Shown here one piece after another: positions 45,710 to 57,169 of a stretch of 64,000 nt of DNA. The stretch lies in NCBI GenBank assembly GCA_938017675.1, contig CALIJB010000005.1:114140-178139 (forward strand), in the 5' to 3' direction. Both the position numbers and the translations under genes were made by a program. The notes under the pieces were generated by a model. That model did no database searches. It had not been told where the DNA came from and saw nothing but the letters and a program-made list of their open reading frames with translations. Every line of letters begins with the position of its first letter. Within the stretch, counting starts at the first letter, position 1. Source of the DNA: an uncultured Candidatus Saccharibacteria bacterium (GTDB lineage: Bacteria > Patescibacteriota > Saccharimonadia > Saccharimonadales > Saccharimonadaceae).

Positions 45710-45785
45710 TGGTGGGGGCGGTTGGGATCGAACCAACGACCAACAGGTTATGAGCCCGCTGCTCTAACCCCTGAGCTACGCCCCC
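45710..45785 (-). tRNA. tRNA with CAU anticodon (elongator Met or Ile2/lysidine), CCA encoded
   Basis: The reverse complement is GGGGGCGTAGCTCAGGGGTTAGAGCAGCGGGCTCATAACCTGTTGGTCGTTGGTTCGATCCCAACCGCCCCCACCA. The 1:72 pair is G:C, so it is not an initiator. Confidence 0.85.
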
Positions 45786-45893
45786 ATTGCTGATATTATA
45801 GCGTAAAATCATTACGACGTACAGATTATTTGTTGACTGGCTCGATTTGCTTATGTTACTATGTCAGGTATATAACCCAAGTGAGGTAGGAGT

Positions 45894-48800
45894 ATGAAAA
45901 TACACAGGAAAAATATCAAATATAAATATCGCCGTATTGGCGTTGGAATAACCGTATTCATTGCGGCATTAAGTTTGGTGCTGGTGAATTTGCCGCGAGC
46001 TCAGGCGTCGCAGCTTAACAAAAAGTACTCTTTTATTAAAACCAATTACACCGTCCCAACGAGTAATGTCGCGTGGGTAGCGCCGAATGGCAACGACACC
46101 TCAGGTAATGGTTCCGAGGGTTCGCCGTACGCTACATTCAAGAAAGCTCTCAGCTCTATTAGTAATGGCGGCACGGTAGTCGCGAAGTCGGGTATTTATC
46201 GTGAACCGCATTTTTTCATCTCTGACGATAATGTGACTATTCAAGCGGCGCCGGGGGCAGAAGTTTGGCTAAAGGGCAGCGATGTCGTAAATTCATGGAC
46301 TAGTGAAAATGGCATATGGAAAACAACTGGGAATTATCACAACTTCTGTCATGTTTGTACCACAAATGCGAATCCAAGCGTTGAAGGTGTCGCGGCCTAC
46401 CCAGAACAGGTTTTCATTAACGATGAGCCGCTAAAGCAGGTTAAAACTAAAGCAGAGGTAACGCCTGGTAGTAATACTTTTTATGTCGAAGACAATACTC
46501 CTACTACGCTCAAAACCCCTAACAATAATGCAGACGGCTATAATATTGGCCAGCAAGATGCGATATCTTATTATATTGGCAAGAATCCAGCTAGCGGTGT
46601 AACCGAGATATCAGAGCGGGCGCGAGCTTTCACTAGTACTGGCAAAAACGTTTCCGTAAAGGGCATTAACGTTGCTCAGTATTCGCCTGTTCAGGTTTGG
46701 GGTTTTAAGGATCCTTACGATCCTGCCGCTGACAGAGGAGTTTATTCGGGTCCAACCGCAGTAAGTATCAACGGAACTGGCTCGTTGGTTCAAGATATGA
46801 TTGTCACCCAAAGTGCAAGCCAAGGCCTGTTCTTTAACAAAGCAGAATCGTCGACGGCGCGCGGCGTAAAGGCGATAGATAATGGCGGCTCGGGAGTTGG
46901 GGCTAACAAATCTCACAACACAGTATTTACTAACGGTGAATTATATGGCAACAACGCGGAAGGTTTCTTGACGATTGGCTGCGGAGCTTATTGTACGATG
47001 GCCGATATCAAAGTTACGCATACGCGAAATTTCACATTCCGCAATAATATTGTTGATTATTCTCGCGACGCTAAAGCGTATTCTACTGCTGCCAACGCCA
47101 ATAGCGAAGGTATGATTGGCCTTTGGTGTGACGAGGGTTGTGTAGAAACGAAAATCGTTGGCAACTTCTTTACTAATTCTCCGCTTGCTATCATGTACGA
47201 GGTCTCTGGTAATGGTATAATTGCCTCTAATATAATCGAGAGCTCCGGTACGGGTATTCGCGTAGCTGGCAGCGATGATGTTAAGGTGTATAACAACACC
47301 ATATCTCGTACTTATCGGCCAATATACATATTTGAAGACAGTCGTATTGACGGATGTAATTATTGGAAAGGCGGGTCCTGTGTAGCTAACGAAAGCTGGT
47401 CGCAGGGACTGGGTCTAGATTGGAATACTTCGGGCGTTGAATTGTATAACAACATTATATCTTCGCGGCCGTTAGCTCGAACAGAGGATCTTTCTGGCGG
47501 TAATTATCAACGCGCGTATTCACTGCGTGTTGAAGGATCTCAGAATGATCAAAATAGACCGTATGTCGATGCCAACGATATGCTCAAAGGGTTTGATTAT
47601 AATGTATATTACCGTAACGAATCAGACGATATAAATTTGTCGGTGTGGGATTTCAAACAGATTCCTTCAAAGACTGATACAGTTATAAGCAGAGCTTCTG
47701 ATATCGCGAATAATCCAAAATTGTCGAACTCGATTGACGGCCGCGATGCGCATTCGCTTGATACTTTTGGCTCGCGAGCAAATAATCCGTATTTCGTGAA
47801 AGAAGCAGCAAATAATAACGATTACAAAAAGAGCAATTACAATCTCAAACCAGGTAGCCCAGCTATCAACAAAGGTAAACCGTTATCTAGCGACGTAGCG
47901 CAGGCGATTGACCCAACAGGCAAAACTGTTAAAGCTGGCGTGCCGGTAAATGCTGGTGCTTTGGTTAATGTGCTGATGGATGCGACGGGCGGGCAGACTC
48001 CGCCGACACCTCCAGTAACTGTCAATATTCCTGATGCTGGCCTCAAGGCGGCTATCAATAAAACGCTTGACAGCAATCGTCCGAGCACCCAGGATATCAC
48101 AGTGGACGAGCTAGCTCAGTTGACGCAACTTACCGTAGACGGCGGTGTTAAAGTTAAAAATTTAACAGGCCTCGAGAAGGCAGCTAATTTACAAGAGCTG
48201 AAGATTGACAATAACGAAGTTGCTGATTTGGCGCCTTTGTCATCGTTAGCAAAATTGACCAAGTTGACAATGACAAATAACAAAGTCGCGTCGATCGAAC
48301 CGTTGGCGTATTTGGCTAACTTAAGCGTACTTTTAGCGTCTGGCAATCCGATTGCTTCGACCAAGCCGCTAGCTAATCTGACGCATTTGACACAAGTAAG
48401 TGTAGATAGTAAATCGACAGCGTTTGATATTTCTGATTTTGCCAAGAGTGCGGGCACCTTGACGACATTGCAGTTGTCTGGTGCTGATAATGGTACGCCG
48501 CAGTTAGTGCATAGCGAAGTTCTAAAGCAACTTACTAAAGTAACGACTCTCCAAGTATCGTCAACCTCGTTAACCGATAACGATCTGAATAGTATTGGCG
48601 TGATGACGCAATTAACGTCGCTGCAAGCAGACCGCAGTAATATTAGCGATATGTCGTTTGCGGGCCGCTTAACTAAATTAACTAAGCTTGACGTTTCTAA
48701 TCAGCGTGTCCGTATGAGTACGAGTACAACGCCGTTTGCATCGCCGCTCAAAGATGTATCGGGTACGGCTGTTGCTATAACCAACAGCGCTGATTTGGCT

Positions 48801-51026
48801 AATGATGGGGCTGGTCGTGTCAAAATTGTCTCGCCAATTTATGATAATAATGCTCATGAGTTGTCGGCAACTTGGACCAAGAATGTTACAGTTGGCACTG
48901 CTACCGCCCAATTCAACGGTCAGCTAACAGTGTCTGCAACGCTGCCAAAAGCTGATAAAGCTCAGCTCCAAGCGCAAATAGATCGCGCGAATAACTCTGC
49001 AGATTATATCAAAGCAGATGTGACGGTAGCCAGTGCGCTGTCAGCTGCGAAAAACGTTGTTGCTAAACAAAATCCGACACCTGCCGAAATTAGCCAAGCG
49101 ACAAACGACCTCAAGCAAGCACTTGATGCCGCAATAGCTAAAGAAACGGCAGCTCAAGCGGCCGCACGGACAGCGGTTGATAAGGCAAAAAACAGTAAGT
49201 CGCCTGCTGATATTCGCGCTGCAGAGGCACTTTTAGCGCACGTTCAGGACACAGACAAGAAATCAGCGATGCAAGATGAGCTCAACGCCGTCAAACAGGA
49301 AATTACCGATGCGCGGACAGCCTTATCGAAATTGATTGACAAGGCGAAGAACACGCCGACGGATGGTCTAGCGGCCGAGACTGTTGCTGCTTTGAATACC
49401 GCAATTGCTGCAGCTAAAGCAGTCAATAACGACCAAGAGTCAACTTTGGCGCAGCTCAATGAAGCCAAAACCAAATTGCAATCAGCTCTTGATAACCTCA
49501 AAACCGATAAGACAGCGCTAGCCAAAGCTATAGCGGATGCTGACCAAGAGCCAGTTTATATCAAGAACGATTCAGCGGTTAAAACTGCTCTGCAACATGC
49601 TAAGAATGTTTATGCTGCGGCTAATCCAACGCCAGCAGAAGTTAACACAGCTGTCAATAATTTGAAGTCGGCAATTAATGCTGCTAAAAAGAAAGAAACT
49701 GATGCTCAAACAGCTGCTGCCAATGCGGTTGCGGCAGCAGAAGGCGCTAAAACGGCGCAGTCGATAACGGCGGCTCAAACTCTCGTTGACGCTGTCCAGG
49801 ACGCGTCGGTTAAGTCTGCTCTGCAGGCGCGTCTTGATGCTGTATCGCAGCAGCTTAGCAATGCTAAACAAACGCTTGCCACACTTATTACTAAAGCTGA
49901 GGCTGTCGATACGACTGGTATGAGTGCTGACACTGTCAATGCGCTAAAGGCTAAAATTAAGCAAGCTAAACAAGTCTACAATGATGCTTCAGTATCAGTA
50001 ATGCGACTGCAAGCGGCGGCGTCGGAGTTGCAAGCAGCTCTCGATGCCTTGCGGCCAGACAAGACTACTTTGCGCGACGTGATTGCTCGGGCGGAAGCGC
50101 AGCCAGCGTATATCCGAAACGATCCTGCAGTCAAATCTGCTTTGCAGCATGCCAAGAACGTTGAGGCCGCTGCTAGCTCGACGCCAGCTGATATTAGTTC
50201 CGCGATACAGCAGCTCAATTCGGCAGTTACTGCCGCTCAGAAGAAAGAAGCTGACGTCCAGGCGGCCGCCCAGGCAGCTGTTGCCGATGCTGAAAGCCAG
50301 AAAACTGCTCAGTCTATAGCGCATGCGCGAACACTAGTCGATAAAGTACAGGATCAAGCCGTTAAGACAAACCTTCAGGCGCGCCTAGATGCGATTGTTG
50401 TCCAAACCTTTGTCAACAAGCAAACAATTCGCCAAGCAAACAATACCAATATTACGCTGTCTACCTCAGGAGATAAATGTTACAACATCAAAAACGCTGC
50501 TGCGGTAGGGCAGCCGAAAAATATTCCGACTGGCTATCAGATGCAGGGCTCGGCCAAGTTTACGATCAACTGTGACGGACATGCGCAGCCAGCGGTTGGG
50601 TATACTACCAAAATTACTCTCGAATTATCGCGTATCTACAAAGTTAATCGCCTAAAAGTAATCAAGTACAGTATTAATGGCGCTAATGCTACCGATATTA
50701 CCGAGAAAGTCACACTCAAAACATCAGTCGATGGCAAACGCACTATTGTTGAATACTCAATTACCGATGGCGGCTTTGGCGACATGGATAAAACTGCTAA
50801 CGGTGTTATCGACGATCCGGTTATAATTTATGAGCGGTCAGAGAATACTACGCCAGCTAATGGTGGCAATCAACCTGGAGCTCCAGCAAAGAATAGCAAG
50901 GCTACTGCTAACGGCGGACGCTTATCTGAAACTGGCGATAGCCTATACGGTTATATTATCGGCGCTGGCGTACTGGTGCTAGGCGGCGCTGCCGGTGTAT
51001 ACGCTATCATTCGTCGTCGCCAATAA
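45894..51026 (+). CDS. Giant cell-surface protein: beta-helix region, internalin-like LRRs, helical repeats, C-terminal beta domain, LSETG sorting signal
   Basis: It has an N-terminal TM/signal segment. Parallel beta-helix-like repeats are present (NNIVDYS, NNTISRT, NNIISS). About ten 22-aa LRRs follow (LxxLxxLxLxxNxIxDLxPL). There are 2.6 copies of a 184-aa Ala/Lys/Gln-rich repeat. The C-terminus has a DGGFGDMDKTANGVIDDP motif, then LSETG, a hydrophobic helix and RRRQ. Confidence 0.8.
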   Translation: MKIHRKNIKYKYRRIGVGITVFIAALSLVLVNLPRAQASQLNKKYSFIKTNYTVPTSNVAWVAPNGNDTSGNGSEGSPYATFKKALSSISNGGTVVAKSGIYREPHFFISDDNVTIQAAPGAEVWLKGSDVVNSWTSENGIWKTTGNYHNFCHVCTTNANPSVEGVAAYPEQVFINDEPLKQVKTKAEVTPGSNTFYVEDNTPTTLKTPNNNADGYNIGQQDAISYYIGKNPASGVTEISERARAFTSTGKNVSVKGINVAQYSPVQVWGFKDPYDPAADRGVYSGPTAVSINGTGSLVQDMIVTQSASQGLFFNKAESSTARGVKAIDNGGSGVGANKSHNTVFTNGELYGNNAEGFLTIGCGAYCTMADIKVTHTRNFTFRNNIVDYSRDAKAYSTAANANSEGMIGLWCDEGCVETKIVGNFFTNSPLAIMYEVSGNGIIASNIIESSGTGIRVAGSDDVKVYNNTISRTYRPIYIFEDSRIDGCNYWKGGSCVANESWSQGLGLDWNTSGVELYNNIISSRPLARTEDLSGGNYQRAYSLRVEGSQNDQNRPYVDANDMLKGFDYNVYYRNESDDINLSVWDFKQIPSKTDTVISRASDIANNPKLSNSIDGRDAHSLDTFGSRANNPYFVKEAANNNDYKKSNYNLKPGSPAINKGKPLSSDVAQAIDPTGKTVKAGVPVNAGALVNVLMDATGGQTPPTPPVTVNIPDAGLKAAINKTLDSNRPSTQDITVDELAQLTQLTVDGGVKVKNLTGLEKAANLQELKIDNNEVADLAPLSSLAKLTKLTMTNNKVASIEPLAYLANLSVLLASGNPIASTKPLANLTHLTQVSVDSKSTAFDISDFAKSAGTLTTLQLSGADNGTPQLVHSEVLKQLTKVTTLQVSSTSLTDNDLNSIGVMTQLTSLQADRSNISDMSFAGRLTKLTKLDVSNQRVRMSTSTTPFASPLKDVSGTAVAITNSADLANDGAGRVKIVSPIYDNNAHELSATWTKNVTVGTATAQFNGQLTVSATLPKADKAQLQAQIDRANNSADYIKADVTVASALSAAKNVVAKQNPTPAEISQATNDLKQALDAAIAKETAAQAAARTAVDKAKNSKSPADIRAAEALLAHVQDTDKKSAMQDELNAVKQEITDARTALSKLIDKAKNTPTDGLAAETVAALNTAIAAAKAVNNDQESTLAQLNEAKTKLQSALDNLKTDKTALAKAIADADQEPVYIKNDSAVKTALQHAKNVYAAANPTPAEVNTAVNNLKSAINAAKKKETDAQTAAANAVAAAEGAKTAQSITAAQTLVDAVQDASVKSALQARLDAVSQQLSNAKQTLATLITKAEAVDTTGMSADTVNALKAKIKQAKQVYNDASVSVMRLQAAASELQAALDALRPDKTTLRDVIARAEAQPAYIRNDPAVKSALQHAKNVEAAASSTPADISSAIQQLNSAVTAAQKKEADVQAAAQAAVADAESQKTAQSIAHARTLVDKVQDQAVKTNLQARLDAIVVQTFVNKQTIRQANNTNITLSTSGDKCYNIKNAAAVGQPKNIPTGYQMQGSAKFTINCDGHAQPAVGYTTKITLELSRIYKVNRLKVIKYSINGANATDITEKVTLKTSVDGKRTIVEYSITDGGFGDMDKTANGVIDDPVIIYERSENTTPANGGNQPGAPAKNSKATANGGRLSETGDSLYGYIIGAGVLVLGGAAGVYAIIRRRQ
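48954..50405 (+). repeat. Tandem 552-nt coding repeat, 2.6 copies
   Basis: Repeat units start at 48954, 49506 and 50058 (DKAQLQAQI / DKTALAKAI / DKTTLRDVI), so the period is exactly 552 nt. Confidence 0.85.
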
Positions 51027-51081
51027 GAGTCGTTTTATCTCGCTATCTCGATTACCGCTCATGGTTTATAATAGTTGACAG

Positions 51082-51558
51082 ATGAAGCTTATTGAAAGAT
51101 TACGCCAACAACTGCATTATATCTGGTTTAATTACGCGAACTTTAATGGATTGGTGCTGTTGTTGGCGATTATCATTGCGATTAGCTGGGTGATGGGTAC
51201 AATGTCGACGATCCAGACGAACTTTAGCGCCCAACGAGCGCTTGACGAAAAAAAACAACAATTACGGCTGGCGCAGCTAGAAGTAGAGACGCTGAAATAC
51301 GAACAAAATTATTATAAGAGCGATGAATATAAAGAGCTAGAAGCGCGCAGCAAGTTAGGTCTGGCAGACCCTGGCGAGAAGCAGCTGATACTGCCAGAGA
51401 ATAGCGCTGCAGTGAAATCTCTCGACAGCCAAGACGATAGCTCATCTTATGTTAAAACAGCTCCACGTAACAATACACCTGCCGTGCACAAGTCAAACTT
51501 CCAACAATGGATTGATTTTCTGACTGGCAAAACTGCTGTTTCGCGCTTGCAGAAGTGA
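51082..51558 (+). CDS. Septum formation initiator family protein (FtsB/DivIC-like)
   Basis: It has a TM helix, a coiled coil and an ARSKLGLADPGEKQLILP motif. Confidence 0.8.
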   Translation: MKLIERLRQQLHYIWFNYANFNGLVLLLAIIIAISWVMGTMSTIQTNFSAQRALDEKKQQLRLAQLEVETLKYEQNYYKSDEYKELEARSKLGLADPGEKQLILPENSAAVKSLDSQDDSSSYVKTAPRNNTPAVHKSNFQQWIDFLTGKTAVSRLQK

Positions 51559-51576
51559 TACGTAATTTGCTATAAT
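51547..51576 (+). promoter_or_regulatory. Candidate sigma-70-type promoter for the initiator tRNA
   Basis: TTGCAG-N18-TATAAT ends 11 nt before the mature tRNA 5' end. Confidence 0.5.
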
Positions 51577-51587
51577 AGTACCCGTAT

Positions 51588-51665
51588 CGCGGGGTGGAGC
51601 AGCCTGGTCAGCTCGCTTGGCTCATAACCAAGAGGTCGCTGGTTCAAATCCAGCCCCCGCTACCA
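51588..51665 (+). tRNA. Initiator tRNA-fMet (CAU), CCA encoded
   Basis: CGCGGGGTGGAGCAGCCTGGTCAGCTCGCTTGGCTCATAACCAAGAGGTCGCTGGTTCAAATCCAGCCCCCGCTACCA is near-identical in the acceptor, D and T arms to the E. coli initiator as I remember it. Position 1:72 is unpaired (C1, U72). Confidence 0.9.
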
Positions 51666-51667
51666 AG

Positions 51668-51698
51668 AAAAAAGCTCAACTTTTGGTCGAGCTTTTTT
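51668..51698. terminator. Bidirectional intrinsic terminator (A6-GCTC...GAGC-T6)
   Basis: It lies between the convergent tRNA-fMet and the 51717 CDS. Confidence 0.75.
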
Positions 51699-51716
51699 CT
51701 TGGTTAACTGACTGGT

Positions 51717-53093
51717 TTAAGCTAATTTGCTAGCAGCGACCCGAACAGCTTCGCTCCAGCTCAAGAAAACGTGCGGCGTGTCTGCTAGATCTTTGGCGGT
51801 TAGGCCGTGCCGCACAGCTAGGGCGATTTCGTGGATACTATCGCTAGCATTCGGCGCGACTATAGTACCGCCGGCTATAACGCCTTTCTTGTCGCATACT
51901 AGTTTGACGAAGCCGTCGCGGAAATCGCTGGTGTTGGAGCGGCCGATGATTGATAGCGGCGCTATGGCTTTTTTGATTTTGAGGTCGCGTTTGATACAAT
52001 CGTCTTCGGTCAGGCCGACAGAAGATACTTCCGGAAAGGTGAAAGTTGTCCGCGGTGTAGCAGTATAATCTGGCGCGATTTGATTCTTTGAAAAAAGGTT
52101 ATGAGCAGCAATCCGCGATTCTAGCAGTGCAGTATGCGTGTGCTCAGAGTTGCCGATAATATCCCCAGCTGCATAAATGTGGCGTGCGCTTGTCTGTAAA
52201 TATTCATTAACATGGATGCCAGTTGGGTCGTATTGGACACTAGCGTTCTCTAGGCCTAGGTCAAGGTTTGGCTGACGTCCAGTCGCCACCAAGATATCCT
52301 CGACGCGTACCGACTTTTCGACACCGCCGCGCAGGAATGATACGCGGTAGCCGAGTCCGTCTTTGACTGCTGCGACTGTTCGTGTTTGCGTCAATGACGT
52401 AATGCCTTTATGCTTCTTGAGGTAGGCTTCTAGCAGCTCGCCAACTTCTTCGTCTTCTTTTGGTAAAATGCGGGCAGCGATATCAGTCAAATAAACCCTA
52501 GTACCGAAAGTAGCCATCAGCTGCGCGATCTCGACGCCAACACTGCCAGCACCTATGATGTAAAGACTCTTTGGTGGACGCATCGACTCCAGAATAGTGC
52601 GCGCTGTCAAAAATGGGATTTCGTCTAATCCTGGTACTTCTGGTGCTACCCAGTGCGAACCCGTAGCGACCAGGAATCTTTCGGCACTAATGTGCTTGCG
52701 TCGAACGGAAATTTCATTGGGCGACAGAAAGTGGGCATGTCCAGTATAGGTAGTGATGCCTTGGTTTTCGTAAAATTTGCGATTACCAGCAGCCCCAGTT
52801 CGCTTGACGGCGAGGTCTTTCCAGGCGCGGATACTCGGATAATTGTAGCCAAGCGTGTTAGAGCGTAGGCCGAACTTAGCGCCGTGGCGTGCTTGATCAT
52901 AGAGGTGCGCGACGTGTAATAAGGCGTTGGTTGGTACATCGCTCCAGTTAGGCGAATCGCCGCCGAAGGTATCTTCCTCGATAATTGCTACGCGCGCGCC
53001 ATTGCGAGCGGCGATAGTAGCAGCGGCTGATCCGCCAGCTCCGCTACCGATAACTACTAAATCGTAATCAAATTTATTGTGTCTCTTCGCCAT
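51717..53093 (-). CDS. Pyridine nucleotide-disulfide oxidoreductase-fold flavoprotein lacking the redox-active Cys pair
   Basis: GSGAGGSAAA (FAD site), GAGSVGVE (NAD site) and AAGDIIG motifs and a dimerisation domain are present. The expected GGTCLNVGCIPSK position reads GGDSPNWSDVPTN. Confidence 0.8.
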   Translation of the reverse strand: MAKRHNKFDYDLVVIGSGAGGSAAATIAARNGARVAIIEEDTFGGDSPNWSDVPTNALLHVAHLYDQARHGAKFGLRSNTLGYNYPSIRAWKDLAVKRTGAAGNRKFYENQGITTYTGHAHFLSPNEISVRRKHISAERFLVATGSHWVAPEVPGLDEIPFLTARTILESMRPPKSLYIIGAGSVGVEIAQLMATFGTRVYLTDIAARILPKEDEEVGELLEAYLKKHKGITSLTQTRTVAAVKDGLGYRVSFLRGGVEKSVRVEDILVATGRQPNLDLGLENASVQYDPTGIHVNEYLQTSARHIYAAGDIIGNSEHTHTALLESRIAAHNLFSKNQIAPDYTATPRTTFTFPEVSSVGLTEDDCIKRDLKIKKAIAPLSIIGRSNTSDFRDGFVKLVCDKKGVIAGGTIVAPNASDSIHEIALAVRHGLTAKDLADTPHVFLSWSEAVRVAASKLA

Positions 53094-53102
53094 TCATGTC
53101 TC

Positions 53103-53378
53103 CTACATCATTTTTTTGTGGTGTTTATATAAATATGCTGCGTCAGGGTGATTATGTTCTAGAAATCGTCCAGCTTGCGCGCGAATATCGGTGGTGGTAA
53201 TGTCTGATTTTTGGCCGCTCCAAGCTTCGACCTCGCGAGCAGCTTGATCGGCTAAATTGCGGGCTAACCCTTCGGGGCTTTTAGCACTAAGACAGGCGGC
53301 ATACAGGCTAGCACGTAGCTTTTTGGCATCGAAATCTTCTGGCGGGCGTTTGCCTCGTTTGAAAACGGTAACTTTCAT
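53103..53378 (-). CDS. Stand-alone ATP-cone domain protein
   Basis: VFKRGKRPPEDFDAKKLRASLYAAC ... ITTTDIRAQAGRFL ... AAYLYKHH matches the ATP-cone pattern. The length is 91 aa. Confidence 0.7.
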   Translation of the reverse strand: MKVTVFKRGKRPPEDFDAKKLRASLYAACLSAKSPEGLARNLADQAAREVEAWSGQKSDITTTDIRAQAGRFLEHNHPDAAYLYKHHKKMM

Positions 53379-54088
53379 ACAGCATTCACCTGGATGATTA
53401 AGTCGGAAACAGTATTAACGTATATATAAAAACCAAGGATAATCAAACCCAGCCCAGCAGCGAATTGTAAAAAGTATTTGTTTTGTTCGCGCCAGCGCTG
53501 GATGCGGCTCAGTTGGCGGCCGCTGCCAATCAATAGGGCAACGATGAGCAGCCCGAGCGAAGCAGCTAGCGTATAACCTGCTGCGCCAACGATTTGCCAA
53601 ATCGGCGGCAGCGCGATGATGGCGCAGGCTGCGGTAATGATTGGTACAATAGTAAATAGTAGTTCTGCAACAACGCTAGTCAATCCTAGACTAAACGCTT
53701 CGGCGGCAAGACTGGCTTTGGCGGTGCGTTTACGCAAGAATCGGGCAAAACTGCGTGAAATCCACAATTCGGTACCTTCGGTTTTACGATAGTAAAAAAG
53801 GATAACTGCCAAGCCAACGATCATCAGGCCGGCAGTCAAAGTGATCCACAACAAACTACTGTGCGGCGCGAATACACCGATAGCATAGCTAGCGAAACTA
53901 ACGCACAAAAGCGTCATAGTAAAGGCGCCAGCCACAAAGCTGAATAGCAGCCGTAACGTGCGCCGAGCGGCCAGTTTGCGTCCTAAGGCGTGCCCCGATA
54001 GAGACGTAGCCATACTAACGCTTAACTGAAAGCTAGCGTGGATAAGTCCTGCCAGGGCGATGATGCTAACAGCGATGAGAGTATTCAT
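53375..54088 (-). CDS. Six-helix membrane protein, unknown family
   Basis: It has about six hydrophobic helices and shares an ATGA overlap with the ATP-cone gene. Confidence 0.55.
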   Translation of the reverse strand: MNTLIAVSIIALAGLIHASFQLSVSMATSLSGHALGRKLAARRTLRLLFSFVAGAFTMTLLCVSFASYAIGVFAPHSSLLWITLTAGLMIVGLAVILFYYRKTEGTELWISRSFARFLRKRTAKASLAAEAFSLGLTSVVAELLFTIVPIITAACAIIALPPIWQIVGAAGYTLAASLGLLIVALLIGSGRQLSRIQRWREQNKYFLQFAAGLGLIILGFYIYVNTVSDLIIQVNAV

Positions 54089-54184
54089 GTTTGTCTTGAT
54101 AATCCTTATCTTATTTATACCATAAGCGGTCTGGCGAAGTCAAAAGATTTTGTAAAAAGGTATTGCTTTTTTGGCAAGTTTGTG

Positions 54185-54216
54185 TTATACTAAAAGTATA
54201 AGTAATTAACTTATAC
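54185..54216. promoter_or_regulatory. Overlapping inverted repeats TTATAC-N5-GTATAA and GTATAAGT-N5-ACTTATAC
   Basis: These were read directly. They lie 18 nt upstream of the small ORF at 54234. Confidence 0.35.
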
Positions 54217-54233
54217 AAAAAAGGAAAATAAAA

Positions 54234-54368
54234 ATGGAAGTCACCGAATCAAATAACTCATTACACAACGAGAATGCCACCTGGAATCGGCCGCGTACAA
54301 CGGTAGAACTGCGAGAATTTATTAATCGCCGTAATGATCTGCTGGAAGTTGAAGATTTTGCGTTTTAG
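54234..54368 (+). CDS. Possible 44-aa acidic peptide (not in ORF track)
   Basis: The ATG follows an AAGGA RBS. The peptide is MEVTESNNSLHNENATWNRPRTTVELREFINRRNDLLEVEDFAF and is followed by a hairpin. Confidence 0.3.
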   Translation: MEVTESNNSLHNENATWNRPRTTVELREFINRRNDLLEVEDFAF

Positions 54369-54393
54369 CGGCGGTTTAAGCGCAAAGAAAAAT

Positions 54394-54412
54394 CCCCGCG
54401 GCAAAGGCGGGG
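54394..54412. terminator. GC hairpin CCCCGC-N7-GCGGGG flanked by A- and T-rich runs (bidirectional terminator candidate)
   Basis: It lies downstream of both the minus-strand tRNA and the small plus-strand ORF. Confidence 0.6.
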
Positions 54413-54421
54413 AGCTTTCTT

Positions 54422-54498
54422 TGGTAGCACTGACTGGGATCGAACCAGTGACCTTAGGCTTATGAGTCCTACGCTCTAACCAACTGAGCTACAGTGCC
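54422..54498 (-). tRNA. tRNA with CAU anticodon (elongator Met or Ile2/lysidine), CCA encoded
   Basis: The reverse complement is GGCACTGTAGCTCAGTTGGTTAGAGCGTAGGACTCATAAGCCTAAGGTCACTGGTTCGATCCCAGTCAGTGCTACCA. It has a G1:U72 pair and an A31/G39 mismatch closing the anticodon stem. Confidence 0.8.
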
Positions 54499-54627
54499 GC
54501 AAGAGTAAAGCACTGTAGATTATAGCAGATAACAGTAATCGGTGGCAAGCTAGGCTTTTTAAGGATAATTTAATGAAGCTGGCGGATAATACGCTTTGAG
54601 AAATATTTCCCGTACTTCTCTAGTGAG

Positions 54628-54650
54628 CCGCCCTTCTGTGTCAAGGGCGG
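54628..54650 (+). other. Strong hairpin CCGCCCTT-N7-AAGGGCGG immediately upstream of the polymerase-operon -10 box
   Basis: This was read directly. It is followed by TTTGCTATTC and then TGcTATAAT (extended -10, 54663..54671). Confidence 0.5.
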
Positions 54651-54677
54651 TTTGCTATTCTGTGCTATAATTTTGCC

Positions 54678-54941
54678 GTGAACGATGAGCTAGAATTGAA
54701 TGAACGAGTAGAAGTTATTGCGACGTTTGGCAGCGGTTTAGAATTGTGCGTGCCGCGGCGGTTTAGGCGTCCGAATGGGCGTGAGATTGAAGTAAGTGAG
54801 CTAGGTTTGCGGCATCCAGTAGCTAAAGGGCGGCGAACGATACATATTTTTGATGTGACGGACGGGCAAGCTGATTATCGGCTGGAATTTGATAGCGAGC
54901 GGTTGACTTGGCGATTGACGCGCGAGGCGGAGCATGGTTGA
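54678..54941 (+). CDS. Small protein translationally coupled to the Y-family polymerase
   Basis: The GTG start is 6 nt after TATAAT and the gene overlaps the polymerase gene by 8 nt. No family was confidently recognised. Confidence 0.5.
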   Translation: MNDELELNERVEVIATFGSGLELCVPRRFRRPNGREIEVSELGLRHPVAKGRRTIHIFDVTDGQADYRLEFDSERLTWRLTREAEHG

Positions 54942-56259
54942 ACCAGCTGACCAACAAAAGCAGTTTTCCGCGGATGGCTTAAATTTGGAGCATAATCAAG
55001 CATTGCCACTGGTCATGCATATAGACCTTAATAGCTGCTTTGCGACCATTGAACAGCAGTCGCGGCCGCTGTTGCGCGGGCGGCCAGTGGCGGTAGTTAA
55101 TCGTTTGGTCGAGAATACTTCGGTTATCACTGTGAGCTATGAAGCGAAAGCTTACGGTGTTAGGGCTGGTATGAAATATCGCCAGGCTAAACGCCTGTGT
55201 CCCGAGCTAGTAGCGCTCGACAGCGACCCGCCGAAGTATCGCTGGGTATATCGGCAGCTGCTACGAATTATGAACAGCTACAGTCCGTCGGTGGTAATGA
55301 AAAGCATTGATGAAGGTATAATTGATTTTGCAGTAGCGCCCGAATCGATGCGGTCGCGCGGTTTAGAAGCCATCGGCAAAGAGATAAAGCAGCGGTTGCG
55401 CACCGAAGTAGGCTCGTACATGCGTTGTAATATCGGTATCGGTACTAACCGTTTCTGGGCCAAGATGGCGGCTAGTTTGCACAAACCTGACGGGCTTGAT
55501 GTCGTGACGGCGCAAAATGTACGAACGGTGTTAGCTAGCTTAACTTTACGCAATCTAACGGGAATTGCGCGGCACAACGAGCAGCGGCTGAACGCGGTGG
55601 GTATTTTTACGCCGTTGCAAATGTATGAATCGTCGCCAGAGGCGCTTCATGCTGCTTTTCATAGTATTAATGGTGAAAAATGGTATCAACGTCTGCATGG
55701 CTGGGAAGTCGATGATTTGATAAGCGACGTTAAAACATGCGGCCGCCAATACGTACTAGAGGAGCGCAATATGCCACGGCAACAAATAGCCGCTCGATTG
55801 CACAATTTAGTCGAGGCGGTTGGACAAAAAATGCGTTCGCAGCGCAAGTCGGCGCGCGGCGTCGGTATTTATGTGCGAATGGCGGGCGTGGCTAGCGACT
55901 CAAAGCTATCGTCGAATAGTGGACGCTGGGGTCGCGCGGGTAATTACTGGCAGCGTAAATATTTAGCGCCGCTGCCAATGTTTAGCGATGCTGCGTTGTG
56001 GCGCGTGGCCGAAGAGTTATTCTGCCAGGCGCCGGCTGGCGATGTACGCGAGATAGGCGTGCATTGTTATAATCTGTATAACAGCACCAGCGATCAGCTG
56101 AGTTTGTTTGGCGACGAATTAGCGCGCGAGCAGCAAACCACTTGGGCGATTGACGAGATTAATCAGCGGTACGGCGCTCGGACTATTCACGCTGCTAGTA
56201 CGCTTAATACCGAGGCAGTTCGCACCAAGATTCCGTTTGGTAGTACGCGCTATTTATAA
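54934..56259 (+). CDS. Y-family DNA polymerase (DinB/UmuC-like)
   Basis: MHIDLNSCFATIEQ (catalytic Asp and steric gate) and MKSIDEGIIDF (catalytic D-E) motifs and a little-finger-length C-terminus are present. Confidence 0.88.
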   Translation: MVEPADQQKQFSADGLNLEHNQALPLVMHIDLNSCFATIEQQSRPLLRGRPVAVVNRLVENTSVITVSYEAKAYGVRAGMKYRQAKRLCPELVALDSDPPKYRWVYRQLLRIMNSYSPSVVMKSIDEGIIDFAVAPESMRSRGLEAIGKEIKQRLRTEVGSYMRCNIGIGTNRFWAKMAASLHKPDGLDVVTAQNVRTVLASLTLRNLTGIARHNEQRLNAVGIFTPLQMYESSPEALHAAFHSINGEKWYQRLHGWEVDDLISDVKTCGRQYVLEERNMPRQQIAARLHNLVEAVGQKMRSQRKSARGVGIYVRMAGVASDSKLSSNSGRWGRAGNYWQRKYLAPLPMFSDAALWRVAEELFCQAPAGDVREIGVHCYNLYNSTSDQLSLFGDELAREQQTTWAIDEINQRYGARTIHAASTLNTEAVRTKIPFGSTRYL

Positions 56260-56302
56260 AATGTATTACTGCATATAAGTATCAGTTAACGCTAGCGTCC
56301 TG

Positions 56303-57169
56303 ATGGATTATAATAAAAGTAATATGACGTATCTAGTGGCAGTTTCTGGCGGCGTGGATAGCGTGTGCTTATTGGATATGCTAAGCCGGTCGGAACATCG
56401 GCTAATTGTAGCGCATGTCGAACATGGAATCCGCGGCGAGGCTTCGTGCGCTGATGCACGGTTTGTGGCAGCGTTGGCGCAGAAATATAATTTACCGTTC
56501 GTTTCGACGGCGCTTAATCTCGGGCCGAATGCTAGCGAAGAATTAGCGCGCCAGAAGCGTTATGATTTTTTGCTGGCGCAGGCACAGAAATTTGGCGCGG
56601 TGCTAGTTACGGCGCATCATGCTGAAGATGTCGCCGAAACGATTGCTATCAATATTGAGCGCGGTACGGGATGGCGCGGGTTAGCTGTGCTAGCGCGCAC
56701 AGGAGTTAAACGTCCGCTGATTTCTTTTACCAAGACGCAATTGTACGATTATGCGCTGCAGCATCGCTTGGAATGGGTTGAAGATGCAACGAACGCAAGC
56801 GGTCTTTATCAACGCAATCGTGTCAGAAAAGCACTAAAAAGTGTTATTAGTCAACGCACAATTGTAAGGATATTGCAGTTTCGCGCTAGACAGCTAGCTT
56901 TACGGAAAGATATTGAACGCGAAACTGAGCGGATCATGCTGCGCAATAGCGGTTCGCGGTATTTTTTGTCGCAGATTGATGATGATGTAGCGTTAGAGCT
57001 GTTAGCGAGCGATATTGCCAGGCAAACTGGCGGACTGCGACCGACTCGGCCGCGTACTCAACGGGCTTTGCTGGCTATCAAGACGGCGCGGCCGGGCGCT
57101 AAAATTGATGTCGGCGATGGCGTGCAATTAGAAATTACCTCTCGAACTTACTGCGCGAAGGTGGTATAA
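56303..57169 (+). CDS. tilS: tRNA(Ile)-lysidine synthase, short form
   Basis: The PP-loop VAVSGGVDSV is present and the gene lies before ftsH. The in-frame ATG at 56324 (9 nt after TATAAT 56309..56314) is an equally good start. Confidence 0.88.
   Translation: MDYNKSNMTYLVAVSGGVDSVCLLDMLSRSEHRLIVAHVEHGIRGEASCADARFVAALAQKYNLPFVSTALNLGPNASEELARQKRYDFLLAQAQKFGAVLVTAHHAEDVAETIAINIERGTGWRGLAVLARTGVKRPLISFTKTQLYDYALQHRLEWVEDATNASGLYQRNRVRKALKSVISQRTIVRILQFRARQLALRKDIERETERIMLRNSGSRYFLSQIDDDVALELLASDIARQTGGLRPTRPRTQRALLAIKTARPGAKIDVGDGVQLEITSRTYCAKVV

Follow-up and report, generated by a model that had tools for sequence, protein, structure and literature searches.

The subject of this analysis is a three-gene operon on the minus strand of a 64,000-nucleotide (nt) stretch of DNA, hereafter the window, from an uncultured Candidatus Saccharibacteria bacterium of the family Saccharimonadaceae (assembly GCA_938017675.1, contig CALIJB010000005.1, positions 114,140 to 178,139). 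In the direction of transcription the operon encodes a 237-amino-acid (aa) protein with six transmembrane (TM) helices (53375-54088), a 91-aa protein consisting of an ATP-cone (53103-53378), and a 458-aa flavoprotein related to the flavoprotein disulfide reductases (51717-53093). The open reading frame (ORF) coordinates show that the stop codon of the membrane-protein gene and the start codon of the ATP-cone gene share a 4-nt ATGA overlap (53375-53378) and that a 9-nt gap (53094-53102) separates the ATP-cone gene from the flavoprotein gene, the same tight coupling that had been claimed in an earlier note on this DNA. Judged by its homologues, the trio is the Saccharimonadaceae version of a module of exoprotein, CcdA/DsbD-like protein, ATP-cone, and flavoprotein that is conserved across the order Saccharimonadales. 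The window belongs to a genome of 0.89 Mb with named homologues in Candidatus Saccharimonas, Saccharimonadales, and Nanosynbacter, and a 99%-identical copy comes from a human oral metagenome.

Flavoprotein family and loss of thiol chemistry

The flavoprotein has the class I architecture of two dinucleotide-binding folds and an interface domain, as seen in its Pfam matches to Pyr_redox_2 (175 bits), Pyr_redox (58 bits), and Pyr_redox_dim (86 bits). It keeps the flavin adenine dinucleotide (FAD) site GSGAGG, the nicotinamide adenine dinucleotide (NAD) site GAGSVGVE, and the TGR and AAGD motifs, all of which are conserved in both the cysteine (Cys)-containing and the Cys-less clades of the family; these motifs and the Pfam matches bear out the FAD and NAD(P) fingerprints and the dimerisation domain described earlier. 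The strand that follows the NAD site ends in a conserved acidic Asp, a mark of NADH-type enzymes of this fold. None of the NCBIfam equivalog cut-offs was reached. The best two models were MerA (347 bits against a cut-off of 454) and Lpd (336 against 409), and the protein reached 223 bits with the SthA model (cut-off 465) and 213 bits with that of the NAD(P)H-quinone dehydrogenase (cut-off 479).

Both redox cysteines have been replaced rather than displaced, since GGDSPNWSDVPTN aligns opposite GGTCVNIGCVPSK and GGVCLNVGCIPTK when the protein is aligned with HMMER to solved structures of MerA (5x1y) and Lpd (2eq6, 1ebd). The columns of the CxxxxC motif are occupied by Ser47 (codon 52953-52955) and Asp52 (codon 52938-52940), and no displaced Cys pair was found in the flavoprotein in alignments to the MerA and Lpd structures and to orthologues. 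The earlier note had claimed that both redox cysteines were lost and that classical dithiol/disulfide chemistry was consequently impossible, and the alignment to the solved proteins upholds it on both counts. At the C-terminus, H-V-F-L-S-W-S-E stands opposite H-P-H-P-T-L-S-E of Lpd, with Phe443 in place of the catalytic His and Glu448 kept. This His-Glu dyad (HPxxxE) is incomplete in the entire Saccharimonadales family, which has Phe at the position of the His (HAFPTWSE).

Most of the orthologous flavoproteins have an intact GGECPN[FYW]GCVPTK. Two auxiliary cysteines, Cys 349 and 454 in the numbering of the window's protein, are usually kept in these Cys-containing orthologues and replaced in the window's clade, the window itself having Thr349 and Ala454. 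Sixteen sites are conserved within each clade with differing residues, including C47S, C52D, C349L, C454A, P444L, and T445S. Elsewhere in the genome there is a second, TrxB-like gene, the flavoprotein being the only other Pyr_redox_2-type protein found; because this separate TrxB-like gene exists, the flavoprotein is not the cell's thioredoxin reductase. These results also give functional context to the "orphan lipoamide dehydrogenase" annotations of these genomes.

A cysteine-less, CcdA/DsbD-like membrane protein

The membrane protein was anonymous in the earlier note. Its six TM helices stand but its anonymity does not, as its orthologues are CcdA/DsbD-like, and by homology it is a cysteine-less member of the CcdA/DsbD-like (LysE-clan) family. 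The family consensus (234 aa) reads SINPCAIGVL in TM1 and VELPCTGAPYL in TM4, and a single PC cysteine in each of these two helices characterises the CcdA/DsbD reductant transporters. In the window's protein NPC has become FQL in TM1, with Leu22 (codon 54023-54025) in place of the Cys, and LPC has become LLF in TM4, with Phe145 (codon 53654-53656) in its place.

The Cys-containing orthologues match Pfam DsbD_TM (PF02683) over its full length (33.4 bits, gathering score 27.1) and Pfam SfLAP (PF11139) above the gathering score (19 of 29 members), and their sole NCBIfam match is the DsbD membrane region (E 3.8e-6). With the family profile the window's protein reaches 226.9 bits (E 9.6e-68), and with the profile built from alignment A1 it reaches 222.1 bits (E 2.8e-66); the window sequence is itself a member of each profile. 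Its AlphaFold2 (AF2) model has a predicted local distance difference test (pLDDT) score of 91.8. Across 54 non-redundant sequences, the 6-TM protein has acquired new conserved polar residues (His17, Gln21, His33, Glu130, and Glu142), and conserved cytoplasmic loops are also kept.

A four-gene module and the correlated loss of cysteines

The distribution of the trio was surveyed in 151 genomes of the order; about 70 loci were fetched, and 53 entered the final table. Of these genomes, 62 have the flavoprotein, 50 the ATP-cone, and 27 a membrane protein that a single-sequence search could recognise; the matches were nearly always adjacent and on one strand, with the membrane protein first, the ATP-cone second, and the flavoprotein last. 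One round of profile iteration raised the yield, and the membrane protein then stood beside the flavoprotein in 45 of the 53 tabulated loci. The three genes are collinear and co-conserved across genomes of the order, in agreement with the operon that had been claimed for the window.

In 39 loci a fourth gene lies directly upstream of the membrane gene, often overlapping it (e.g., L039:329-1318). The encoded exoprotein has about 300-400 aa, with two N-terminal TM helices followed by a beta-rich extracytoplasmic domain, the motifs GPVHWHADIE and HEHxDxRIHLEG, and several invariant Cys (six or so); its AF2 model has pLDDT 88, and searches of Pfam, NCBIfam, and PDB folds gave no match. Its presence follows the state of the membrane protein: it occurs at 31 of the 31 loci in which both membrane Cys are kept, at 2 of the 14 in which they are lost, and at none of the 8 without a membrane gene. 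No copy of it occurs anywhere in the window's genome or in any of the 80 related genome loci of the Cys-less operon. A gene for a P-type cation ATPase recurs beside the four-gene module in its Cys-containing form (32 fetched loci, e.g., L069:4430-5300) and does not adjoin the window's operon.

The cysteines of the flavoprotein and those of the membrane protein have been lost in a correlated way. Where the flavoprotein keeps CxxxxC, the membrane protein keeps both Cys in 31 loci and has lost them in 3, and the membrane gene is absent from a further 3; where the flavoprotein Cys are lost, the membrane Cys are lost as well in 11 loci, the membrane gene is absent in 5, and no locus retains both membrane Cys, these counts being phylogenetically non-independent and reflecting some 3-5 independent events. 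Such co-loss speaks directly, on comparative grounds, for a joint action of the flavoprotein and the CcdA-like protein.

In a flavoprotein tree rooted on paralogues that keep CxxxxC, the window's family is monophyletic (support 1.0) and nested inside Cys-containing lineages (node support 0.99). Because of this monophyly and nesting, and because the outgroup paralogues retain the motif, the Cys-less state is, on the evidence of the tree, a derived, lineage-specific condition. The nearest neighbours of the family, with weak support, are two genomes in which the flavoprotein has Cys...Asp and the membrane partner is Cys-less; these extant intermediates suggest that the membrane Cys and the flavin-proximal Cys were lost first. 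The tree also places the Cys losses in L053, L056, L055/57, and L052/54 as independent, and the change of the second Cys to Asp, which needs two nucleotide changes, arose again in L054. Among eight sampled genomes of the window's family, the second Cys is Asp in all eight, the first is Ser in seven and Ala in the remaining one (L015), and the membrane partner is Cys-less in every case. The thiol relay would appear to have been dismantled in both partners together and then frozen into a new conserved form, providing a natural experiment.

A stand-alone ATP-cone

The small protein matches the Pfam ATP-cone PF03477 at 27.8 bits, above the gathering score of 25.8, and its orthologues score 31-46 bits; the description of a free 91-aa ATP-cone is therefore correct. 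It had no match among PDB sequences. Within 55 non-redundant sequences of the Cys-less clade, the N-terminal signature K-R...E-x-F...K-L is at least 80% conserved. Among the 53 tabulated loci, the ATP-cone gene is present in 44 of the 45 with a membrane gene and in 2 of the 8 without one. At four loci (L066, L067, L068, and L077) the membrane gene and the cone occur without a nearby flavoprotein, and at L078 the flavoprotein directly follows the membrane gene, with no cone. In a phylum-wide search, strong matches to the stand-alone cone profile were confined to the order and one other genome, the weak matches elsewhere in the phylum falling in frames of NrdR size (about 150 aa) or ribonucleotide reductase (RNR) size (700-1000 aa). 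Going by this gene content, the ATP-cone is most likely a nucleotide-sensing partner of the membrane protein, and the finding points to a role for ATP-cones outside ribonucleotide reduction.

A further pairing was seen in another class of the phylum (genome G179, L079:1881-3321), where a CcdA-like gene, encoding a 297-aa protein with a signal-like N-terminal extension, is followed by a gene for a 185-aa double ATP-cone (Pfam, 86 bits). No flavoprotein orthologue is adjacent; a weak profile match (E 5.6e-15) lies on the opposite strand about 1.2 kb downstream. The pairing of a CcdA-like protein with an ATP-cone therefore reaches beyond Saccharimonadales. An apparent fusion of membrane protein and ATP-cone in L051 (358 aa) was rejected as an artefact, as the frame crosses a stretch of N, read as X.

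Conservation and selection in the Cys-less family

The replacement residues are themselves strongly conserved. The motif GG[DE]SPN[WFY]SD and TPHAFLSWSEAVRVAA are nearly invariant in 120 homologue clusters with 72-99% identity, and the trio is complete in 79 of 80 related loci (67-100% identity) from Nanosynbacter, Saccharimonas aalborgensis, Microsaccharimonas, and others. Among about 26 near-identical oral genomes, the within-population ratio of nonsynonymous to synonymous polymorphism (pN/pS) was 0.033 for the flavoprotein, 0.050 for the ATP-cone, and 0.034 for the membrane protein. Between genera, the flavoprotein had a pN of 0.10, the membrane protein one of 0.14-0.20, and the cone one of about 0.3 (range 0.10-0.34); the between-genus pS of 0.64-0.79 is saturated, which makes the ratio of nonsynonymous to synonymous divergence (dN/dS) unusable, and the within-population pN/pS was used instead. 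The three genes are not decaying, and all three are under strong purifying selection. Saccharibacteria have tiny genomes and live in the human mouth as abundant epibionts, and a strongly selected operon that is nearly universal in the family probably matters to their physiology.

The partners evolve differently in the two groups. Where the cysteines are kept, no partner is as well conserved as the membrane protein, which has 75-91% identity, with the flavoprotein at 45-90%; in the Cys-less family, by contrast, the membrane protein evolves fast, at 31-48% identity and far below the flavoprotein. As measured by these identities, the selective regime has shifted. Two contigs labelled as coming from other groups, L118 (Acidobacteriota) and L139 (Parcubacteria), carry a typical Saccharimonadaceae Cys-less operon (72-76% identity) and are probably mis-binned or mislabelled contigs of metagenome-assembled genomes.

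Proposed function and alternatives

Pieced together from its parts, the ancestral module would have consisted of four co-oriented, often overlapping genes, encoding a membrane-anchored exoprotein rich in His and Cys, a CcdA/DsbD-like 6-TM protein with one Cys each in TM1 and TM4, a stand-alone ATP-cone, and an NADH-type flavoprotein with CPNxGC and Cys 349 and 454. Electrons would have passed from NADH to FAD, from there to the flavoprotein thiols and the membrane Cys pair, and finally to the exoprotein; the ancestral system probably carried reducing power across the membrane in this way. In the window's family the exoprotein gene has been lost, the membrane Cys have become Leu22 and Phe145, and all four flavoprotein Cys have been replaced, the interchange Cys by Ser47 and the flavin-adjacent Cys by Asp52. 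Because every thiol has been lost, the window's version is unable to relay thiol electrons.

It is on balance probable that the trio is a derived, Cys-free form of this conserved Saccharimonadales envelope module that now serves as a thiol-independent NADH/FAD enzyme at the membrane. The present flavoprotein would bind FAD and NADH and pass a hydride or electrons directly from the flavin to a non-disulfide acceptor, candidates being O2, a quinone or metal, or another pyridine nucleotide (cf. Irc15p, Mycobacterium tuberculosis LpdA, and the soluble transhydrogenase). It would act at the membrane together with the 6-TM protein, which is likewise Cys-less, and adenine nucleotides would control it through the ATP-cone. 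Direct use of the flavin is most likely by analogy with Irc15p, a yeast Cys-less paralogue of Lpd that binds FAD, is reduced by NAD(P)H, and makes H2O2, and that reduces ferricyanide, 2,6-dichlorophenolindophenol (DCPIP), and menadione, and not disulfides (PMC6296175). The exchange of Cys for Ser and Asp at the flavin makes this a tractable case of enzyme repurposing. A more specific picture, in which the three proteins form a working membrane-associated complex of an undescribed kind, with a Ser/Asp Lpd-fold flavoenzyme that carries out thiol-free, NADH-driven chemistry, docked on a re-tooled CcdA-type protein and gated by the ATP-cone, is put forward only tentatively. If true, stand-alone ATP-cones would be dedicated partners of CcdA-type carriers in ultra-small bacteria.

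Several points weigh against the proposal of a repurposed, Cys-free module. Pfam gave no match for the window's 6-TM protein, Foldseek found nothing at E < 0.05 when its AF2 model was compared with the PDB, and the membrane-family profile matched no PDB sequence, and so no solved CcdA or DsbD; the family assignment rests on homology to the Cys-containing orthologues. To the small number of independent events behind the correlated losses is added the weak support (0.66) for the node that joins the two intermediate genomes to the window's family, which leaves the order of losses only suggestive. Finally, since MerA and Lpd models give the flavoprotein similar scores and the exoprotein is rich in His, the ancestral role may have been thiol-mediated metal handling of a mer-like kind and not electron export.

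The alternative that survives best, possible although we consider it unlikely, gives the trio a sensory or regulatory role without catalysis, in which the flavoprotein is a pseudoenzyme that reads NADH/NAD+ or the redox state of the flavin, the cone reads ATP/dATP, and together they gate transport by the membrane protein. The retention by the membrane protein of new polar residues in TM1 and TM4 and of its cytoplasmic loops would suit such a role, and equally strong purifying selection on all three proteins fits a complex. Many LysE-clan families are carriers of ions or small solutes. Irc15p, too, has been proposed to work through conformational change (PMC6296175). However, the full set of FAD and NAD motifs and the invariant Ser...Asp at the flavin argue for retained chemistry, and transport by the membrane protein is hypothetical.

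Far less probable, and close to refuted, is a relic reading, in which the operon is what remains of the thiol relay and its genes are decaying into pseudogenes. Every redox Cys and the exoprotein partner have indeed been lost, and the membrane protein and ATP-cone evolve faster than in Cys-containing lineages, but 79 of 80 genome loci from several genera have intact frames, within-population pN/pS is 0.03-0.05, and the replacement residues Ser47 and Asp52 are nearly invariant.

Putative promoter, terminators, and genomic neighbourhood

The operon may be transcribed from its own promoter. A putative promoter and ribosome-binding site, read by eye on the minus strand (54103-54143), consist of TTGACT (54143-54138), an 18-nt spacer, TATAAA (54119-54114), and AAGGA (54107-54103), with the ATG 14 nt downstream; we infer that these are the promoter and ribosome-binding site of the operon. 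The pair was missing from the list produced by a consensus scan because its -10 hexamer has a final A. The leader of about 300 nt between the upstream tRNA terminator and the start of the operon (54089-54392) contains this good -35/-10 pair along with AT-rich repeats, and in the relative L083 small called ORFs occupy the equivalent space.

Terminators lie on both sides of the operon. Folding predicts a bidirectional hairpin (51662-51704), with A and T runs at both sides, where an initiator-like tRNA gene and the flavoprotein gene converge with their 3' ends; its energy is -24.7 kcal/mol (z -7.2 against shuffled sequence) for the plus strand and -28.2 kcal/mol (z -9.6) for the minus strand. A second hairpin (54389-54425; -18.9 kcal/mol, z -3.5 against shuffled sequence) follows the minus-strand tRNA gene upstream of the operon, and its 7-bp GC stem leads into a T run. 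Both fold far better than shuffled sequence, as expected of the flanking terminators that the earlier note had proposed.

The bracket of two tRNA(CAU) genes with their 3' ends inward, also proposed there, was recovered by ARAGORN. The first (51588-51665, plus strand, 78 nt) is initiator-like and a conserved neighbour outside the operon; it has a CGCGGGG acceptor start and a C1:U72 mismatch, though its anticodon stem has just two G-C pairs at the base, and by comparison with Escherichia coli tRNAfMet it is a putative initiator. The second (54422-54498, minus strand, 77 nt) is an elongator Met or Ile2 tRNA and a conserved upstream neighbour, and a third tRNA(CAU) lies at 45710-45785 on the minus strand. 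In 25 of 28 relatives with 67-83% identity, and also in the other family members, the operon is flanked by tRNA(CAU) genes of these three length classes. These three genes and tilS (56303-57169) cluster around the operon (45710-57169) in an arrangement conserved across the family; the simplest reading of this synteny is that the cluster may reflect a need for three CAU tRNAs (initiator, elongator Met, and Ile2) beside tilS.

Beyond the initiator-like tRNA lies a DivIC/FtsB-like septum gene (51082-51558; PF04977, 31.4 bits), whose position is kept in L083 and L084. On the other side (54678-56259), the gene of a Y-family (IMS) polymerase overlaps an 87-aa ORF upstream of it, for which Pfam and NCBIfam gave no match. 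This pair is syntenic in L083, a relative with 83% identity in which both the DivIC-like and the polymerase neighbours recur.

Judged by these comparisons, the tRNA bracket is an old and stable synteny rather than a place of insertion. The integration hotspot suggested in the earlier note is not supported, and that the operon is a horizontally acquired cassette integrated between the tRNA genes, as its bracketing by two inward-facing tRNAs and terminators might suggest, is scarcely credible when no integrase occurs among the window ORFs, GC content is flat across the operon region, the same tRNA(CAU) types are kept in 25 of 28 relatives (67-83% identity) and the trio in 79 of 80 loci, the DivIC-like and polymerase neighbours are syntenic in the 83%-identity relative, the flavoprotein tree follows family groupings, and an empty site, with tRNA adjoining tRNA, was seen in 0 of 80 related loci.

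Comparison with known systems

The earlier note knew of no described system with such a trio, and our search of the literature on ATP-cones, CcdA/DsbD, and lipoamide dehydrogenase in Saccharibacteria likewise found no description of the module. The nearest known counterparts of its membrane component are the CcdA, DsbD, and ScsB transmembrane reductant transporters, which make up the DsbD superfamily (PMC3322552). Like these, the orthologous membrane proteins of the module have about 234 aa, six TM helices, and a PC cysteine in TM1 and in TM4, match Pfam DsbD_TM and the NCBIfam DsbD membrane region, and, in their Cys-containing form, are encoded beside the gene of a Cys-rich extracytoplasmic protein. 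While the donor of the known transporters is cytoplasmic thioredoxin, the module instead encodes an Lpd/MerA-like flavoprotein and an ATP-cone, and it lacks a thioredoxin-fold acceptor. The window's copy has neither Cys and so cannot work alike.

Cys-deficient homologues of the class I flavoprotein disulfide reductases include M. tuberculosis LpdA (Rv3303c) and the soluble transhydrogenase SthA. The window's flavoprotein resembles these and Irc15p in being Lpd-like, with FAD and NAD(P)H sites and no redox disulfide. It is not a member of those families, as it falls below the SthA and quinone dehydrogenase cut-offs, and it differs from them in its invariant Ser...Asp pair and in sharing an operon with a membrane protein and an ATP-cone.

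The ATP-cones of RNR and NrdR (PF03477) share with the small protein the sequence family and the N-terminal K-R...E-x-F...K-L signature. Unlike them, it is a free protein of 89-95 aa without a catalytic or DNA-binding domain, and its genomic tie is to a CcdA-like membrane protein and not to nucleotide metabolism.

As a whole, the ancestral module is reminiscent of MerT, MerP, and MerA in combining an extracytoplasmic protein of metal-binding type, a membrane protein with paired Cys, and a MerA-like flavoprotein. Like MerA, the ancestral flavoprotein has an extra Cys near the C-terminus and no catalytic His; the flavoproteins scored miss the MerA cut-off, however (347-376 bits against 454), and have neither an NmerA domain nor a C-terminal Cys-Cys pair. 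The membrane protein of the module, unlike MerT, is DsbD-like, and the window's version differs from the mercury resistance system in being without any thiols.

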